From NCBI RefSeq assembly GCF_988243305.1, contig NZ_OZ547136.1: a DNA stretch of 64,000 bases; one strand, 5' to 3'. The position numbers were made by a program, and so were the translations under genes. Positions 53,387-59,453 of this stretch are shown here, one piece after another; the stretch's first letter is position 1; each line of letters starts with the position of its first letter. The notes under the pieces are model-generated. The model was given only the letters and a program-made list of their open reading frames with translations. It was not told where the DNA came from and searched no databases.

Positions 53387-54787
53387 ATGACCTCTACACC
53401 GATTACTGCCGCTGATATCGCTAAAGGTAAAATTGACGATGCGTTATCTGTACGGGAAAAAATAGGCTACGGCCTGGGTGACGCAGGCGGCACCGTAATA
53501 ACTTGCCTGATCATGAACTTTCTCACCTTTTTCTACACCGACGTTTTTGGCTTAACTCCGGCGCTGGTCGGCACGCTGTTTATTGCACTGCGCGTGTTTG
53601 ATGCCATCTCCGACCCGGTGATGGGCGTCATTGCCGACCGGACGCAAAGTCGCTGGGGGCGCTTTCGTCCGTGGCAGTTATGGATTGCCATTCCCATCGG
53701 CATTATCGGCATCCTGACGTTCACCGTGCCAGATGCCAGCATGGGAGTAAAAATCGCCTGGGCGTTCGGCACTTACCTGCTCCTTTCAGTCGGTTATACC
53801 GCCATCAACGTGCCGTACTGCGCGCTGATCAACACCATGACCACCCGCCACAATGAAGTGATCTCCTGCCAGTCCTGGCGATTCGTTCTCTGCGGCGTAG
53901 CGGGATTTCTGGTTTCGGTAGGCTTACCGTGGATGGTAGATCTCTTCGGTCAGGGTAATGCCGCGCGCGGCTATCAACTGGGCGTCGGCGTGCTGTGCGC
54001 CATCGCTGTGGTGATGTTCCTGTGCTGTTTCTTCTGGGTTCGTGAACGGGTGCCACTCTCCACAATGGGGAAATTTACCCTGCGCGAACATCTTGCCGGG
54101 CTGCGAAACAACGACCAACTACTGCTGATGCTGGTCATGTCTTTCCTGCTGATTAACGTCTTTAACATTCGCGGCGGTGGGTATATGTACTTCATTACCT
54201 ACGTCTTACAAGGCAGTACGGGCTACACGTCGCTGTTCTTCACCATGGTCACCTTCGCCTCCATTATCGGCTCGGTGATTGTCAGCCCGTTAACGCGGCG
54301 TTTCGATACCGTCAAAATTTATTACTACACCAACCTGCTCCTCGCTGCGCTGGCGGTGTTGATGTGGTTCCTGCCCTCCGGCCCGGCTTATCAAACGCTG
54401 TGGCTGGCGGTGATCCTCGGTAATGGCGTGATTCTTGGCTTCACATTGCCACTGCACTTCTCATTGATGGCCTTTGCCGATGACTACGGCGAGTGGAAAA
54501 CCCGCGTACGTTCTTCCGGCATGAACTTCGCCTTCAATCTGTTTTTCATCAAACTGGCCTGGGCCTCCAGCGCCGGGATCATCAGCCTGCTGTTTATTTT
54601 TGTCGCCTACCAGCCAGGCGTGGAAAACCAGACCACCAGTTCGCTTGGCGGGATCACGGCGATGGAAACATTACTGCCTGCGCTATTCCACCTGCTGCTG
54701 GCAGGGGCGATCCGCTTTTGCAAACTCAATAACCCTATGATGTCACGCATTGCTACCGACCTGCGTCAGCGTCATGTACAGCCTTAA
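53387..54787 (+). CDS. GPH-family (MelB-like) glycoside:cation symporter
   Basis: 466-aa 12-helix protein with GPH N-terminal signature GYGLGDAGG...[17 protein letters not shown]...[28 protein letters not shown]. Confidence 0.88.
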
Positions 54788-54797
54788 GGAGCACAAG

Positions 54798-56762
54798 ATG
54801 AACATTTCGGAAGTCGATCTGCATAAACTGACGGTCAGCGATCCGTTCCTCGGTCAGTACCAACAACTGGTCCGCGATGTGGTGATTCCTTATCAGTGGG
54901 ACGCCTTGAACGATCGTATCCCAGAAGCGGAACCCAGCCATGCGATTGAAAACTTTCGCATTGCCGCAGGACTGCAAGACGGTGAATTTTACGGGATGGT
55001 GTTTCAGGACAGCGACGTCGCCAAATGGCTGGAAGCGGTAGCCTGGTCGCTGTGCCAGAAGCCGGATGCCGAACTGGAAAAAACCGCTGACGAGGTAATC
55101 GAACTGGTCGCTTCCGCCCAGTGCGAAGATGGCTATCTCAATACTTACTTTACGGTAAAAGCGCCCGAAGAACGCTGGAGCAATCTGGCGGAGTGTCATG
55201 AACTTTACTGCGCCGGTCATCTGATTGAAGCCGGAGTCGCCTTCTTCCAGGCCACGGGCAAGCGGCGCTTGCTGGAAGTGGTTTGCCGTCTGGCCGATCA
55301 TATCGACAGCGTATTTGGTCCAGGTGAAAGTAAGTTACACGGTTATCCTGGTCACCCGGAAATTGAACTGGCGCTAATGCGCCTGTATGAAGTGACCGAA
55401 GAGCCGCGCTACCTGGCGCTGACGAACTATTTTGTCGAACAGCGTGGTGCGCAACCGCACTATTACGACCAGGAATATGAAAAGCGCGGGCAGACCTCGC
55501 ACTGGCACACCTACGGCCCGGCGTGGATGGTGAAAGATAAAGCCTACAGCCAGGCGCATTTGCCCATCGCACAGCAACAAACCGCCATCGGACATGCAGT
55601 ACGCTTTGTATATCTGATGACTGGCGTCGCACATCTGGCGCGTTTAAGTCACGATGAAAGCAAGCGTCAGGATTGCCTGCGGCTGTGGAACAATATGGCC
55701 CAGCGTCAGTTATATATTACCGGCGGCATTGGCTCACAAAGCAGCGGCGAAGCGTTCAGCAGCGATTACGATCTGCCGAATGACACGGTTTACGCCGAAA
55801 GCTGTGCTTCCATCGGCCTGATGATGTTCGCCCGGCGAATGCTGGAAATGGAAGGCGACAGTCAATATGCCGATGTGATGGAGCGCGCACTGTACAACAC
55901 CGTGCTCGGCGGCATGGCGCTGGATGGCAAACATTTCTTCTATGTGAATCCGCTGGAAGTACATCCAAAATCGCTGAAATTCAACCATATCTACGATCAC
56001 GTTAAGCCGATCCGCCAGCGTTGGTTTGGTTGCGCTTGTTGTCCGCCAAATATCGCCCGCGTGCTGACCTCGATTGGTCATTATCTCTACACGCCGCGTG
56101 AAGATGCGTTGTATATCAACATCTACGCAGGAAACAGCATGGAAGTGCCGGTAGAAAATGGCACGTTGCGCCTGCGGGTTAGCGGGAACTATCCGTGGCA
56201 GGAACAGGTGACAATTGCGGTTGAATCGCCCCAGCCGGTGCGTCATACGCTGGCTTTACGTCTGCCGGACTGGTGCACACAGCCGCAGATCATATTGAAT
56301 GGGGAAGAGGTCGGGCAGGATATTCGTAAAGGGTATTTGCACATTACCCGCGAATGGCAGGAGGGCGACACACTGAATCTGACTTTGCCAATGCCGGTAC
56401 GTCGCGTTTACGGTAACCCTCTGGTGCGTCACGTCGCCGGAAAAGTGGCGATTCAGCGCGGCCCGCTGGTGTATTGCCTGGAACAGGCCGACAACGGCGA
56501 GTCACTGCATAACCTGTGGCTGCCTACCGATGCGCCATTTACGACCTTTGACGGCAAGGGATTGTTCCGCCATAAGATCTTAATCCAGGCACCGGGTTAC
56601 CGGTATGAACAGAGCAATCCAGAGCAGCAACCGCTGTGGCATTACGACAGCGCGCCAGCCAAACGCCAGCCGCAAACCCTGACCTTTATCCCGTGGTTTA
56701 GCTGGGCCAACCGGGGTGAAGGCGAAATGCGGATCTGGGTGAATGAGGAAACCAGCGCATGA
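54798..56762 (+). CDS. Glycoside hydrolase family 127-like protein (DUF1680; predicted beta-L-arabinofuranosidase)
   Basis: 654-aa ORF from ATG 54798 with SD aaggag 11 bp upstream; contains ESC and CACC motifs matching my recollection of the GH127 Glu-x-Cys / Cys-Cys zinc and nucleophile site. Confidence 0.72.
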   Translation: MNISEVDLHKLTVSDPFLGQYQQLVRDVVIPYQWDALNDRIPEAEPSHAIENFRIAAGLQDGEFYGMVFQDSDVAKWLEAVAWSLCQKPDAELEKTADEVIELVASAQCEDGYLNTYFTVKAPEERWSNLAECHELYCAGHLIEAGVAFFQATGKRRLLEVVCRLADHIDSVFGPGESKLHGYPGHPEIELALMRLYEVTEEPRYLALTNYFVEQRGAQPHYYDQEYEKRGQTSHWHTYGPAWMVKDKAYSQAHLPIAQQQTAIGHAVRFVYLMTGVAHLARLSHDESKRQDCLRLWNNMAQRQLYITGGIGSQSSGEAFSSDYDLPNDTVYAESCASIGLMMFARRMLEMEGDSQYADVMERALYNTVLGGMALDGKHFFYVNPLEVHPKSLKFNHIYDHVKPIRQRWFGCACCPPNIARVLTSIGHYLYTPREDALYINIYAGNSMEVPVENGTLRLRVSGNYPWQEQVTIAVESPQPVRHTLALRLPDWCTQPQIILNGEEVGQDIRKGYLHITREWQEGDTLNLTLPMPVRRVYGNPLVRHVAGKVAIQRGPLVYCLEQADNGESLHNLWLPTDAPFTTFDGKGLFRHKILIQAPGYRYEQSNPEQQPLWHYDSAPAKRQPQTLTFIPWFSWANRGEGEMRIWVNEETSA

Positions 56763-56786
56763 TGCGACGCTTAACGCGTCTTATCA
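56762..56786. repeat. REP-like imperfect palindrome at the 3' end of the GH127 gene
   Basis: gatgcgacgc-ttaa-cgcgtcttatc. Confidence 0.4.
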
Positions 56787-56833
56787 GTATCAACATATCG
56801 GTGCGGTTGCCCGCCAACCATCGAAACGCGAGA

Positions 56834-57244
56834 TTAAACGCCCGGCAATACACGCCGGGCAGCTTCCGCCAGAAACGCACTTCTGTTGGCATAGTCTGGG
56901 TTATTGCGCACGTAGGTATCAATCTTGTTCAGTAATCTTTTTGGCATCGTAATATTGATACGTTCAGCCCGACCTTCGAACTGATTCATATTGATATCCA
57001 CCAGCAACCATTGCCCGCCAATAAAGTCCTGCGCACGCTGGACCAGATGTGTTTCCACAGAGCCTGGAAGCGGCAACTCTTCATTCATCTCGCATAAGGT
57101 TTCGAAGTGCGCGACCAGTGCACTTCGCGCATCCTGGAAAGCGTAGTCCAGCGTATCACCAGCAAAATAACAGCCTGGAACATCAGGGAAAAAACCGCTG
57201 GCACTGCCGTCAGGATCACTGTGGATATAGGCGGGATAAAACAT
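56834..57244 (-). CDS. hicB: HicB-family antitoxin (N-terminal HicB fold plus C-terminal ribbon-helix-helix)
   Basis: 136-aa ORF MFYPAYIHSDPDGSASGFFPDVPGCYFAGDTLDYAFQDARSALVAHFE... with C-terminal RHH-like NRSAFLAEAARRVL; strong SD aggagg upstream. Confidence 0.8.
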   Translation of the reverse strand: MFYPAYIHSDPDGSASGFFPDVPGCYFAGDTLDYAFQDARSALVAHFETLCEMNEELPLPGSVETHLVQRAQDFIGGQWLLVDINMNQFEGRAERINITMPKRLLNKIDTYVRNNPDYANRSAFLAEAARRVLPGV

Positions 57245-57260
57245 ATTGCCTCCTGAAATT

Positions 57261-57446
57261 TTAAAATGTTAAACCAGCCTGACGCCCAATTTGCGCCAGC
57301 GTACCGGGCTTAATATCTTTTTTAGGGTGCGGAACCGTCACCAGACCCGGATGAACAGGGTGGCGGAACTGATGATGACTGCCACGGGTTCGAATATGTT
57401 CCCAGCCATGCTGCTTCAGGATGGCGATCACGTCTGCACTTTTCAC
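57261..57446 (-). CDS. hicA: HicA-family toxin (YcfA-like mRNA interferase, 61 aa, GTG start)
   Basis: (M)KSADVIAILKQHGWEHIRTRGSHHQFRHPVHPGLVTVPHPKKDIKPGTLAQIGRQAGLTF; conserved GSH...H and VTVPHP..D motifs; 16 bp upstream of hicB. Confidence 0.8.
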   Translation of the reverse strand: MKSADVIAILKQHGWEHIRTRGSHHQFRHPVHPGLVTVPHPKKDIKPGTLAQIGRQAGLTF

Positions 57447-57671
57447 ATCCCTGCCCTTCCATGATTATACACACGATACACACACAATTAGCGATAACAA
57501 TCACGATAGCGCGATTTATATGGGCCGTCAGGGGGATAAAGTTGACTCGCTCGGAAGGAGAATAACGGTGTGCAGTAACTTGTTGAAAAGATGCGAGGAG
57601 ACTCGTAATTAAGTTCAATCAATATTCAGTCATTCAAGACGTAGACATTTGAATTGGTAAAACGCGCAAAC

Positions 57672-57702
57672 GTCGCATCAGGCAATGAATACCCGATGCG
57701 AC
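57672..57702. repeat. REP-like palindrome between hicA promoter region and aldB 3' end
   Basis: gtcgcatc-aggcaatgaataccc-gatgcgac. Confidence 0.45.
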
Positions 57703-57714
57703 CAGCTTCTTACA

Positions 57715-59253
57715 TCAGAACAGCCCCAACGGTTTATCCGAGTAGCTCACCAGCAGGCACTTGGTTTGCTGGTAATGCTCAAGCATCATCTTATGGGTTT
57801 CGCGTCCGATGCCCGACTGTTTGTAGCCGCCAAACGCTGCGTGTGCCGGGTAGGCATGATAACAGTTGGTCCACACGCGCCCAGCCTGAATGCCGCGCCC
57901 CATCTTATAGGCCAGATTACCGTTGCGGCTCCAGACACCCGCGCCCAGGCCATATTGCGTGTCGTTCGCCAGCTCCAGCGCTTCTTCCATCGTTTTGAAG
58001 GTGGTCACCGCCAGCACCGGACCAAAAATTTCTTCCTGGAACACGCGCATATTATTCTGACCAAACAGAATCGTCGGTTCGAGGTAGTAGCCGTCTTTCA
58101 GTTCGCCTTCCAGCAGCTTGCGCCGCCCGCCGGTGAGCACGTCTGCGCCCTCTTTTTTACCGATATCAATGTAGTTGAGGATGGTTTCCAGTTGCCCGTG
58201 AGAAACCTGCGCCCCCATTTGCGTCACGCTGTCGAGCGGGTTACCGCTGCGAATGCTTTCGACACGGCGGATGGCGCGTTCCATAAAGCGTTCGTAGATA
58301 GACTCCTGCACTAAAGCACGGCTTGGACAGGTGCAAACTTCGCCCTGGTTAAAGGCAAACAGTGCAAAGCCTTCCAGCGCTTTATCGAAAAAGGCATCTT
58401 CTTCATCCATCACATCAGCAAAGAAGATATTTGGGGATTTGCCGCCCAGCTCCAGCGTCACCGGAATAATGTTTTGCGTGGCGTACTGCATAATTTGTTG
58501 GCCCACTTCCGTTGAGCCGGTAAACGCCACTTTGGCGATGCGTTTCGAGGTCGCCAGATATTCGCCAATTTCCCCACCAGCGCCGTTAACCACGTTCACC
58601 ACGCCCGGCGGCAGTAAATCACCGACGAGTTCCATTAGCAGCAGTACAGAAAGCGGGGTAAGACGTGCGGGTTTCAGCACCACACAGTTGCCCGCCGCCA
58701 GCGCGGGAGCCATTTTCCAGCTCGCCATCAGCAGCGGGAAGTTCCACGGAATAATCTGCCCCACCACGCCTAACGGTTCGTGGAAGTGATAAGCCACAGT
58801 TTCGCTATCCACTTCACTAATACCGCCTTCCTGCGCCCGAATACACGAGGCAAAATAGCGAAAATGGTCAATCGCCAGCGGCACATCAGCAGCACTGGTT
58901 TCGCGAATGGGTTTGCCGTTATCCCAGGTTTCAGCGGTCGCTAACAGTTCGAGGTTCTGCTCCATCCGATCGGCAATCTTAAACAGAATCGCCGCGCGAT
59001 CCTGCACCGAGGTATGCGCCCATTTATCTTTCACTTTGTGCGCAGCATCCAGCGCCAGATCGATATCTCGTTTGCCCGAAGACGCCACTTCGCACAGCAG
59101 CTGCCCGGTCACCGGCGTCAGGTTCTGGTAATACTCGCCGTCGGCAGGGGCTACCCATTCGCCGCCAATAAAGTTGTCGTAGCGGGCTTTTAACTTGAGG
59201 GGGAAACCATACTCGCCGGGCTTAATCTGTGCTGAAGGGGGATTATTGGTCAT
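57715..59253 (-). CDS. aldB: Aldehyde dehydrogenase B (AldB, 512 aa)
   Basis: Start at [36 protein letters not shown]; ALDH motifs (ELGGKSP, catalytic Cys in [11 protein letters not shown]). Confidence 0.93.
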
Positions 59254-59453
59254 GATCGTCTCCTTGCGGTGTGAGGTATAACAAGGGTAGACGTGACTGG
59301 CGAAATCTTCGCCAGTCGGTAACAGCTTTACGACGGCTATCACGAATTTACGGGCAAGGACTACAGAGATAACTAAAACTCTCTCAAAAATCGCAAATTT
59401 TGAGAGAGTTTAAAAAATGGCTGACAATTAGCCAGCCATTGGGGGAATGATGA

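Follow-up and report, generated by a model that had tools for sequence, protein, structure and literature searches.

Known HicAB Systems and Their Relation to the Pair at aldB

The HicAB system of Burkholderia pseudomallei (6G26, 6G1N, 4C26) has hicA placed before hicB, and residues Gly22 and His24 are required for the toxicity of its HicA (PMC3969222). In the outline given by a review, its HicB occupies a palindrome that overlaps the -10 box, and HicA brings about derepression. The pair analysed here lies within 64,000 nucleotides of an E. coli chromosome (contig NZ_OZ547136.1; this whole stretch is referred to as the window) and shares with the B. pseudomallei system the gene order, the Gly22/His24 loop of HicA, a HicB with 34-36% identity from end to end, RHH domain included, and a hicA promoter in which a TGTGTATAAT core overlaps the -10 box. 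The two systems differ in the operator, which is an inverted repeat (TGTGTA-TAAT-TACACA) in B. pseudomallei and consists of direct tandem repeats in the window, in the start of hicA (ATG with a ~20-nt leader versus GTG), and in the hicA-hicB spacer (43 nt versus 16 nt). HicB3 of Yersinia pestis (4P78, 4P7D) is also of the RHH type and aligns full-length with the window HicB at ~35% identity, while HicA3 is a distant match to the window HicA (E 1e-4) and the hicA3-hicB3 spacer measures 174 bp against the 16 nt of the window. HicB3 is summarised in a review as binding two operators that flank the promoter, the principal one covering the -10 box, a layout which, as far as that summary goes, resembles the core and upstream repeat of the window. 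The window operon belongs to the RHH class of HicAB, like B. pseudomallei HicAB and Y. pestis HicA3B3.

The HicAB of E. coli K-12 (hicA/yncN-hicB/ydcQ; 6HPB) is of the same family and has the same gene order, and a review describes its regulation from two promoters. However, the C-terminus of K-12 HicB is an HTH domain, whereas that of the window HicB is an RHH domain. Assignment of the window pair to the K-12 type (HTH class) was rejected, as HicB aligned only over the N-terminal domain (33% identity over 66 residues, 1-66) and HicA showed no significant similarity (BLASTP E 0.011), in agreement with the original prediction that the pair differs from the K-12 hicAB. The K-12-type locus is found at yncJ-ydcR in 4253 of 5426 genomes (78%), compared with 9% for the window pair. 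Another toxin-first operon is the HicAB of IncI2 plasmids, where it acts as an addiction module (PMC11878559); its HicB has an RHH tail ~44% identical to that of the window HicB, the tail alone being alignable. This system is plasmid-borne and possesses an internal terminator, whereas the window pair is chromosomal and shows no G+C-rich hairpin with a U tract upstream of hicB. In addition, a biofilm study of hicAB in ExPEC PPECC42, which may concern this or another hicAB locus, is cited in a review.

Organisation of the Operon and Its Encoded Proteins

Both genes are located on the minus strand, in the order hicA (57446-57261), a 16-nt spacer, and hicB (57244-56834), as read from the ORF list and the sequence, and RefSeq already names them hicA and hicB at coordinates identical to the ORF calls. 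The 61-aa HicA toxin (57261..57446; GTG start at 57446-57444, TAA stop at 57263-57261; WP_000833473.1) matched HicA_toxin PF07927 with an E of 2e-23, residues 4-59 covering model positions 2-58 of 58, and the 136-aa HicB antitoxin (56834..57244; ATG start; WP_000499746.1) matched HicB_lk_antitox PF15919 with an E of 4e-35, residues 3-129 covering model positions 1-123 of 123. These full-length profile matches confirm the toxin-first HicA-HicB pair, 16 bp apart, that had been proposed from the sequence alone. NCBIfam contained no model matching the HicA or the HicB of the window, PADLOC no defence-system model matching the pair, and Rfam no RNA family matching within 56400-58000, even at E <=1. 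The neighbouring genes are metabolic, with no defence-island genes among them, and the GC content of hicAB (~50%) is like that of its flanks, so that the composition is not anomalous. The pair is very likely a real and intact HicA toxin/HicB antitoxin operon, that is, a chromosomal type II TA system. It is also an ordinary one, already known and annotated in public databases, and finding hicAB here matters very little in itself, since the family is well studied and the operon is annotated and can be lost without harm.

The window HicA and B. pseudomallei HicA (4C26/6G26, E 1e-16) share 52-54% identity in an ungapped alignment that conserves Gly22-Ser23-His24, Pro39, His40, Pro41, Asp44, and Gly48, and among 26 HicA homologues H24 was invariant and G22 nearly invariant. 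The AlphaFold model of the window HicA (pLDDT 93) has the topology H-E-E-E-H and matched the HicA of 6G26 in Foldseek with a TM of 0.91 and an rmsd of 0.8 Å; as modelled, the fold is dsRBD-like (alpha-beta-beta-beta-alpha). No amino-acid difference in HicA separates the five E. coli genomes that were compared (window, AF40, PEC148, M160133, and ST69), and the 871-bp locus diverges among them by up to 3.7%. Comparison between genera gave dN values of 0.16-0.2 with dS saturated and, judging from these substitution estimates, the selection acting on hicAB between genera is strongly purifying.

HicB aligned over its full length with B. pseudomallei HicB 6G1N (E 1e-24, residues 2-133) and with Y. 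pestis HicB3 4P78 (E 5e-21, residues 1-132), and both alignments include the RHH segment ERINITMPKRLLNKID...NRSAFLAEAARRVL, corroborating the RHH tail noted at the outset. The protein has two domains: a partial RNase-H-like domain at the N-terminus (~residues 1-90) and, at the C-terminus, an RHH domain of the DNA-binding type (~93-133). Its model (pLDDT 90) contains strands at residues 2-9, 15-18, 26-29, and 78-83 and helices at 32-52, 102-114, and 121-132; the RHH beta-strand is not seen as a strand in this monomer, as expected, because it forms in the dimer. The best structural matches of the model were 6G26_A and 4P7D over 133 columns, with K-12 HicB matching in the N-domain only. By alignment and model, the N-terminal domain corresponds to the HicA-binding domain of the solved complexes and the C-terminal RHH to their DNA-binding domain.

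Start Codons, Shine-Dalgarno Sites, and Spacer

The hicA frame carries a TAA seven codons upstream of the GTG, and no in-frame ATG was found upstream of this codon or inside the ORF when the sequence was read, so the GTG start assigned in the original prediction stands. An SD-like GGAAGG (57455..57460, minus strand) lies 8 nt before the GTG, and a purine-rich AAGG/GGAG is kept at this position in orthologues. The hicA-hicB spacer (57245..57260, minus strand; 16 nt) contains the hicB SD AGGAGG (57254-57249), which ends 4 nt short of the ATG. The predicted anti-SD duplexes amount to -8.0 kcal/mol for hicA and -10.3 kcal/mol for hicB; the hicA site, which had been called weak, is weaker than that of hicB but not very weak, and the energies of the two genes are approximately equal in other genera. 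The hicA GTG (TTG in Yersinia) and the hicB ATG with CAGGAG are conserved across eight enterobacterial genera. Thus, the idea of a lower translation of toxin than of antitoxin survives in part: the non-ATG start may limit toxin translation, for which its cross-genus conservation provides indirect support, but the SD energies differ little and back translational control of the toxin/antitoxin ratio only weakly.

An out-of-frame AUG-UGA start-stop (57443..57448, minus strand), read directly from the sequence, overlaps the hicA GUG; the corresponding ATGTGA is kept in five enteric genera but not in Serratia or Yersinia. The spacer upstream of hicB contained no terminator-like site and its folding was no stronger than that of shuffled sequences (z 0.09), and the hicA leader showed no structure above expectation (z 0.3).

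Predicted Promoter and Candidate Operator

The predicted core promoter and HicB operator (57464..57482, minus strand) has the form TGTGTAT-NN-TGTGTATAAT, in which two tandem TGTGTAT repeats (57482-57476 and 57473-67) are combined with the -10 box TATAAT (57469-57464), and from which we infer a transcription start of hicA near 57457. A sigma-70 consensus scan found no full promoter on either strand, the -35 region being poor (GCTAAT), so that the hicA promoter was called from conservation instead of a consensus score. The core block does not vary among E. coli haplotypes, Enterobacter, Pseudescherichia, Trabulsiella, and Y. enterocolitica despite saturated synonymous sites; within the five E. 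coli genomes examined, it is invariant across four, and it occurs once in the 64-kb window. Exact matches to the core in species genomes lay directly upstream of hicA in 63 of 120 cases, and when 67 hicAB loci were chosen without regard to the motif, 25 matched (<=4 mismatches), compared with 0 of 66 controls. In many phyla the core reappears directly 5' of hicA, whose ATG is then often leaderless, and the B. pseudomallei locus, whose sequence was read here, has the same TGTGTATAAT core within the TGTGTA-TAAT-TACACA palindrome of its hicA promoter. By analogy with that system, the conserved core fits HicB autorepression at the -10 box; the repeats are direct in E. coli and inverted in B. pseudomallei, and the geometry of binding may therefore differ.

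A degenerate operator-like repeat, TATCGTGATTGTTATC (57493..57508, minus strand), is a direct repeat located 30 bp upstream of the core and represents a candidate second HicB site. The block GCGCTAnnGTGAT of this upstream repeat is conserved in enteric orthologues, and distant loci often have a second TGTGTA copy, direct or inverted, upstream of the -35. A possible CRP class II site (CGTGA-N6-TCGCT, centred near -41) was also considered and was dropped, since other genera retain only its left half-site, TGTGA; CRP-S sites have been reported for the hicAB of K-12 and of B. pseudomallei.

The hicA AUG is found 3-8 nt past the -10 box in many phyla, an arrangement that would give a leaderless toxin mRNA. 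We tentatively suggest that RHH-type hicAB may travel with a deeply conserved, self-contained promoter-operator cassette, (TTGACA)-N3-TGTGTAT-NN-TGTG-TATAAT, and that the enterobacterial clade may have kept the operator and swapped the leaderless AUG for a GUG behind a ~10-nt leader overlapped by the out-of-frame AUG-UGA, as an evolved reset of toxin translation; this remains a speculative proposal, somewhat more doubtful than probable. A literature search for the motif string, with the Y. pestis HicA3B3 and B. pseudomallei HicB-DNA papers lying outside its range, retrieved nothing related to hicAB and no general operator rule. The cross-phylum TGTGTA-type operator, together with the comparison of leaderless and GUG-leadered hicA, could guide work on the toxin/antitoxin ratio in toxin-first operons, and the precisely predicted position of the promoter and operator makes 5' RACE and binding work easy to design.

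3' End of the Operon and Flanking Elements

A terminator-like G+C-rich hairpin (56839..56861, minus strand) covers the end of the hicB coding sequence, stop codon included; its stem consists of 9 pairs (7 G-C) with TTTAATCT as the tail, and RNA folding of the 3' region likewise produces it. Downstream of hicB, a REP element (56761..56785, plus strand) overlaps the GH127 stop codon (56760-56762) and shows 0 mismatches to GATGCGRCGY-N5-RCGYCTTATC, which we take to be the REP consensus, with 0 chance matches expected and none in 100 shuffles. This element is an inverted copy of the REP beside aldB. Immediately 3' of aldB, a degenerate REP with a hairpin (57655..57712, minus strand), whose arms (57672-57682 and 57692-57702) form an inverted repeat, is in the opposite orientation to the exact element and is 93% identical to the aldB-adjacent REP of JJ1887 and K-12. 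The pair is thus bracketed by REP-like palindromes, as originally described. On the same side as the exact REP lies the remnant of a convergent small membrane-protein ORF (56805..56837, plus strand; approximately the last 10 codons plus stop). This ORF is complete in Escherichia sp. L014 and carries an internal deletion in K-12, and its remnant marks the left edge of the sequence common to genomes with the yiaW-hicB arrangement.

Distribution and History of the Locus

Intact hicAB was found in 505 of 5426 complete E. coli genomes (~9%), always at the aldB chromosomal site, and the carriers include strains labelled ST38 and ST69; all 505 retain at least 80% of the locus, and both genes are annotated in every record sampled. 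The GH127-hicB junction is identical in 489 of these 505 copies. The GH127 gene itself is present in 2314 genomes, of which ~22% have hicAB and 78% do not. Approximately 3800 genomes keep just a fragment of the hicB 3' end, and a ~110-bp remnant of this end adjoins aldB in K-12, O157, B1-type, and many other genomes. Such remnants are also found beside aldB in genomes that lack GH127 or have yiaTUVW between the remnant and GH127. In the B2 strain JJ1887, GH127 adjoins aldB with REPs alone between them. Outside E. coli, hicAB occupies the same aldB/selB/GH127 neighbourhood in Enterobacter, Trabulsiella, Pseudescherichia, and a non-coli Escherichia, and a frameshifted hicA stands beside an intact hicB in a non-coli Escherichia, where the operator block has one mismatch. 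The K-12 pseudogenes ysaC and ysaD were considered as the hicB remnant and ruled out, as they are located between yiaS and yiaT and not beside aldB. A plasmid origin was likewise ruled out: the record with >99% identity listed in the plasmid collection measures 4.9 Mb and is apparently a chromosome, and the best true plasmid relative of the pair is 43% identical.

The mismatch with GH127, the state of JJ1887, the remnants, the cross-genus synteny, and the unremarkable GC together argue for an old resident that is being lost and not for an insertion. These comparisons indicate that hicAB is an ancestral, decaying, and often-lost resident of the aldB-GH127 neighbourhood in Enterobacteriaceae. 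The original view of an acquired additional copy wedged between GH127 and aldB was therefore abandoned. In the window lineage, a yiaT-yiaW deletion brought hicB beside GH127; in JJ1887-like genomes hicAB has been cleanly deleted, and in K-12-like genomes reduced to the ~110-bp remnant. The operon is dispensable, given its loss in ~90% of E. coli genomes and the frameshift of hicA in a non-coli Escherichia. A single locus thereby offers a natural series (intact, toxin frameshifted, antitoxin remnant, deleted) for the study of chromosomal TA decay.

Proposed Regulation and Alternative Explanations

We propose that hicA and hicB are co-transcribed from one promoter, the -10 box of which is embedded in the tandem TGTGTAT repeats, and that the hairpin at the hicB stop codon, together with the REP that follows, would terminate the transcript. 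As in the characterised systems, HicB oligomers would bind the TGTGTAT repeats, and probably also the degenerate copy 30 bp upstream, leading to repression, and an excess of free HicA would pull HicB off the DNA. When HicB is depleted, free HicA would be expected to cleave RNA and arrest growth. The toxin output is predicted to be low, with a GUG start behind a ~10-nt leader, compared with the AUG and consensus SD of hicB.

A silent or decaying relic, with ORFs that are intact but no longer expressed or toxic and that are heading to the remnant state of K-12, would agree with the loss of hicAB from most E. coli genomes (~3800 keeping the hicB 3' fragment alone), with the frameshifted hicA and mismatched operator of a non-coli Escherichia, and with the poor -35 and the lack of a consensus promoter. 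This explanation appears quite improbable, since the 505 carriers all retain at least 80% of the locus with both genes annotated in every sampled record, five E. coli genomes have the same HicA and four of them the same promoter core, purifying selection between genera is apparently strong, and the catalytic residues of HicA are intact. Even less credible is a horizontally gained additional hicAB copy between REPs, serving as an addiction module that stabilises an AraC-MFS-GH127 cassette, as the original prediction had suggested for the neighbouring genes. The inverted orientation of the flanking REPs, the common GH127-hicB junction of 489 of the 505 intact copies, and the addiction module on IncI2 plasmids (PMC11878559) could be read in this way. 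However, with hicAB in 505 genomes and GH127 in 2314, 78% of the genomes with GH127 lack the pair; hicB remnants stand at aldB even where yiaTUVW intervenes or GH127 is absent; other genera preserve the synteny with aldB, selB, and GH127; the composition is not anomalous; and no close plasmid relative exists among the matches, the best being 43% identical.

The preferred reading of an autoregulated operon is compatible, in its molecular mechanism, with a role in anti-phage defence by abortive infection instead of the control of stress or persistence. We regard this role as unlikely, although less so than the other two alternatives, as PADLOC gave no match and the window copy has metabolic genes, not defence-island genes, as neighbours. 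On the other side, a comparative study proposed a defence function for HicA domains (PMC10865869), PHROG families match the toxin and HicB-like proteins, 330 confirmed relatives are located on viral or prophage contigs (IMG/VR), and a gene for an HSDR_N restriction-endonuclease-like protein is a recurrent neighbour in relatives.

Identity and Anatomy of the hicAB Pair

Family membership, folds, catalytic residues and operon anatomy of the two minus-strand genes between the GH127 gene and aldB were established computationally, as were the conservation of the start codons and of the promoter block and the distribution of the locus. The 61-codon hicA runs from a GTG at 57446 to a TAA at 57261, and the 136-codon hicB from an ATG at 57244 to a TAA at 56834, with a spacer of 16 nt between them. 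In the HMM search, HicA matched the whole Pfam HicA_toxin domain (E = 2e-23), and it aligned without gaps to Burkholderia pseudomallei HicA (4C26, 6G26; 52–54% identity, E = 1e-16). Gly22 and His24 are required for the toxicity of B. pseudomallei HicA (PMC3969222); the window protein keeps both, together with Ser23, Pro39, His40, Pro41, Asp44 and Gly48, and His24 is invariant among 26 aligned HicA homologues. The predicted HicA structure (pLDDT 93) has an alpha-beta-beta-beta-alpha, dsRBD-like topology and superimposes on the HicA of 6G26 with a TM score of 0.91 and an rmsd of 0.8 Å. HicB matched Pfam HicB_lk_antitox over its full length (E = 4e-35), and its alignments with B. pseudomallei HicB (E = 1e-24) and Yersinia pestis HicB3 (E = 5e-21) both run from one end to the other and take in the C-terminal ribbon-helix-helix (RHH) segment; its model (pLDDT 90) matches the HicB structures of these two species across about 133 columns. 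PHROGs gave matches under “toxin” and “HicB-like”, and NCBIfam and PADLOC held no matching model for either protein. These full-length matches, folds and catalytic residues bear out the original prediction of a hicA-hicB pair, and the toxin is intact. The pair is already annotated in RefSeq, with identical coordinates and start codons (WP_000833473.1 for hicA, WP_000499746.1 for hicB), and is a member of a well-known class.

The predicted difference from K-12 hicAB also held, as direct comparison gave no significant similarity between the two HicA proteins, and K-12 HicB shares 33% identity limited to the first 66 residues, the window HicB model matching only the N-terminal domain of the K-12 HicB structure. 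By analogy with the B. pseudomallei, Y. pestis and K-12 systems, HicA would be an RNase arresting growth, and HicB would neutralise it via its N-terminal domain. Characterised relatives further suggest that HicB may repress the promoter through RHH dimers and that surplus HicA may derepress it. A role in defence is possible.

An exact match to the E. coli REP consensus (GATGCGRCGY-N5-RCGYCTTATC) lies at 56761-56785, with 0 expected by chance, and overlaps the GH127 stop codon; a degenerate REP with a hairpin, in the opposite orientation, lies at 57655-57712, directly past the aldB stop. AGGAGG stands 4 nt ahead of the hicB ATG and GGAAGG 8 nt ahead of the hicA GTG. The ORF, start, Shine-Dalgarno (SD) and REP checks thus agree with the earlier description of the sequence. 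The GH127 stop codon sits within the REP (window 56755-56762; JJ1887 locus L002, 9050-9070), so the C-terminus varies by haplotype, ending in NEETSA in the window and in NEETSAIRR in JJ1887, where the annotation treats GH127 as a frameshifted pseudogene. The mechanical ORFs of GH127 (54750-56762, TTG start; 670 aa against 654 aa in RefSeq) and aldB (57715-59343, GTG start; 542 aa against 512 aa) likely begin in truth at internal ATGs, giving MNISEVDL... and MTNNPPSAQ..., respectively.

Translation Signals

The hicA frame has a TAA 7 codons 5′ of the GTG and no in-frame ATG, upstream or internal, which leaves GTG as the sole possible full-length start. Seven enterobacterial genera share the GTG start of hicA, and Y. 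enterocolitica uses TTG instead; in all of them hicB starts at ATG with CAGGAG ahead. Weak hicA and strong hicB signals had been predicted; the conserved non-ATG start upholds this in part, but the contrast in predicted SD/anti-SD energy is modest in E. coli (−8.0 kcal/mol for hicA, −10.3 for hicB), and in other genera the energies are about equal, so the asymmetry that is robust lies in the start codon rather than in the SD. The hicA GUG is overlapped by an AUG-UGA start-stop in another reading frame (57443-57448, minus strand), which might divert or couple ribosomes; E. coli, Enterobacter, Pseudescherichia, Trabulsiella and Metakosakonia all retain the ATGTGA, which Serratia and Yersinia lack. 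RNA folding found no structured hicA leader, and no Rfam family was matched at the locus.

A Conserved, Proposed Promoter-Operator Block

A consensus scan found no full sigma-70 promoter. Nevertheless, the block GTGTGTAT-NN-TGTGTATAAT (57482-57464) does not vary among E. coli haplotypes, Enterobacter, Pseudescherichia, Trabulsiella and Y. enterocolitica, with 1–2 mismatches in three further genera, and the in-frame stop upstream of hicA falls within its TATAAT. If TATAAT serves as the −10 box, transcription would begin near 57457 and yield a leader of about 10 nt opening at the SD-like AAGG. According to a review, the −10 predicted in B. pseudomallei is overlapped by a palindrome to which HicB binds, a binding that HicA disrupts, and Y. 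pestis HicB3 binds two operators on either side of the promoter, of which the main one covers the −10. The B. pseudomallei hicA promoter, gggTGTGTATAATTACACACaag, has a core in common with the E. coli block but is palindromic around the −10 box. By homology, HicB would repress the E. coli operon at the candidate operator 57464-57482, and a degenerate repeat copy 30 bp upstream (57493-57508) is a possible second HicB site. At the other end, a G+C-rich hairpin (56861-56839) overlaps the hicB stop, with the REP farther on; unlike IncI2-plasmid hicAB, the window pair has no internal terminator.

The motif TGTGTATNNTGTGTATAAT lies directly 5′ of hicA in many phyla (loci L017-L136 on genome contigs and L142-L221 on viral contigs). 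When prokaryotic genomes, one per species, were scanned for the exact pattern, at least 120 matches were obtained; among the 120 listed, 63 have a same-strand HicA homologue whose start lies between a few and about 30 nt downstream, usually followed by HicB. Among these listed matches, HicA identity is 37–76%, the hosts include Legionella, Coxiellaceae, Chloroflexi, Geobacter, Burkholderiales, Chlamydiae, Bacteroidota and Firmicutes, many loci carry TTGACA 17 nt 5′ of TATAAT, and the hicA ATG lies 3–8 nt past TATAAT in about 27 of 61 loci, implying a leaderless mRNA. In a motif-independent set of 67 non-redundant hicAB loci on viral contigs, found via protein similarity, the motif occurred with at most 4 mismatches in the 100 nt upstream of hicA at 25 loci (0 of 66 controls). 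The remaining loci show the same architecture with another repeat unit, such as GTGGTTATAATAACCAC or GGGGTTATAGTAACCCC, and the variant units TGGTTAT and GGGTTAT at other hicAB loci are likewise centred on the −10 box. This variation within one −10-centred architecture suggests that operator and RHH domain vary together. No description of such wide TGTGTA-type conservation with leaderless or GUG-leadered hicA was found in the accessible literature, and its breadth is a modest by-product worth recording.

Distribution and History of the Locus

The hicAB locus (at least 80% coverage) is present in 505 of 5426 complete E. coli genomes, including strains labelled ST38 and ST69, always chromosomal and single-copy, and 489 of the carriers have the window-type GH127-hicB junction. 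JJ1887 has nothing but a REP cluster between GH127 and aldB, its homology to the window stopping at 56755/56756 and restarting at 57654/57655. About 3800 further genomes match a short hicB 3′-end piece only. In K-12, O157:H7 and B1-type genomes this remnant of about 110 bp, equivalent to window 56808-56917 with a 12-bp deletion inside, lies between yiaW and aldB (K-12 locus L003, 5699-5910, and also L004-L006, the counterpart of window 56805-56917); the O157:H7 order is aldB, hicB remnant, yiaWVUT, GH127, MFS, AraC. In other genera the order is aldB-yiaU-yiaT-hicA-hicB-HSDR_N-GH127 (Enterobacter), selB-hicA-hicB-HSDR_N-GH127 (Trabulsiella) or aldB-hicA-hicB (Pseudescherichia). A non-coli Escherichia carries aldB, HSDR_N fragments, a frameshifted hicA, an intact hicB, a 127-aa membrane ORF and yiaW-yiaV-yiaU; its hicA region (L014 2291-2484), with one mismatch in the operator block, reads as a decay stage with an orphan antitoxin, the toxin having gone first.

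The original prediction saw in hicAB an apparent additional chromosomal copy that possibly stabilises the neighbouring cassette. However, the GH127 gene occurs in 2314 genomes, about 78% of which are without hicAB, so the pair does not always accompany the cassette, and the remnants and cross-genus synteny likewise leave that proposal unsupported. The GC content of hicAB is about 50%, as in its flanks, and no close plasmid relative was found. On the simplest reading, hicAB has been in the aldB-GH127 neighbourhood since ancient times: in the window lineage a deletion running from yiaT across most of the small membrane ORF would have brought hicB beside GH127, K-12-like lineages would have shed hicA together with the 5′ part of hicB, and JJ1887-like lineages the entire GH127-to-aldB stretch. 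Such a history contradicts both an insertion and a cassette-stabilising role. Where retained, both genes are under purifying selection: four E. coli haplotypes (871-bp locus, divergence up to 3.7%) show zero nucleotide differences in hicA and 4–8 in hicB, the latter with dN/dS well below 1, and between genera dN is 0.16–0.2 for both genes, with synonymous sites saturated. No description of this decay series was found in the accessible literature; it is a modest by-product worth recording.

Several neighbouring features also vary. A gene with an HSDR_N domain, “type I restriction endonuclease” by annotation (comparison loci L007 4221-5300, L008 2912-3988, L012 2920-3999 and L014 730-1983), lies in the hicA/aldB gap in E. 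coli PEC148 and in the hicB/GH127 gap in Enterobacter and Trabulsiella, is fragmented in the non-coli Escherichia, and is missing from the window. The convergent 47-aa “hypothetical protein” WP_001066080.1 (RefSeq), which ends at the hicB remnant, is an internally deleted copy of the 127-aa membrane-like ORF, which Escherichia sp. keeps intact (L014 2908-3291) and of which the window retains only about the last 10 codons. In O157:H7 DEC4E (L016 9439-10971), an IclR-family fragment and ysaA directly follow AraC-MFS-GH127, so the yiaK-S/sgb operon, which lies upstream of the cassette in the window, is absent. Finally, JJ1887 (L002 10895-12190) and O157:H7 (L004 4869-6072) have a gene for a Fic family protein between aldB and yiaY; the corresponding interval of the window (59344-59453) is only about 110 bp long, which marks another presence/absence polymorphism of the same neighbourhood.
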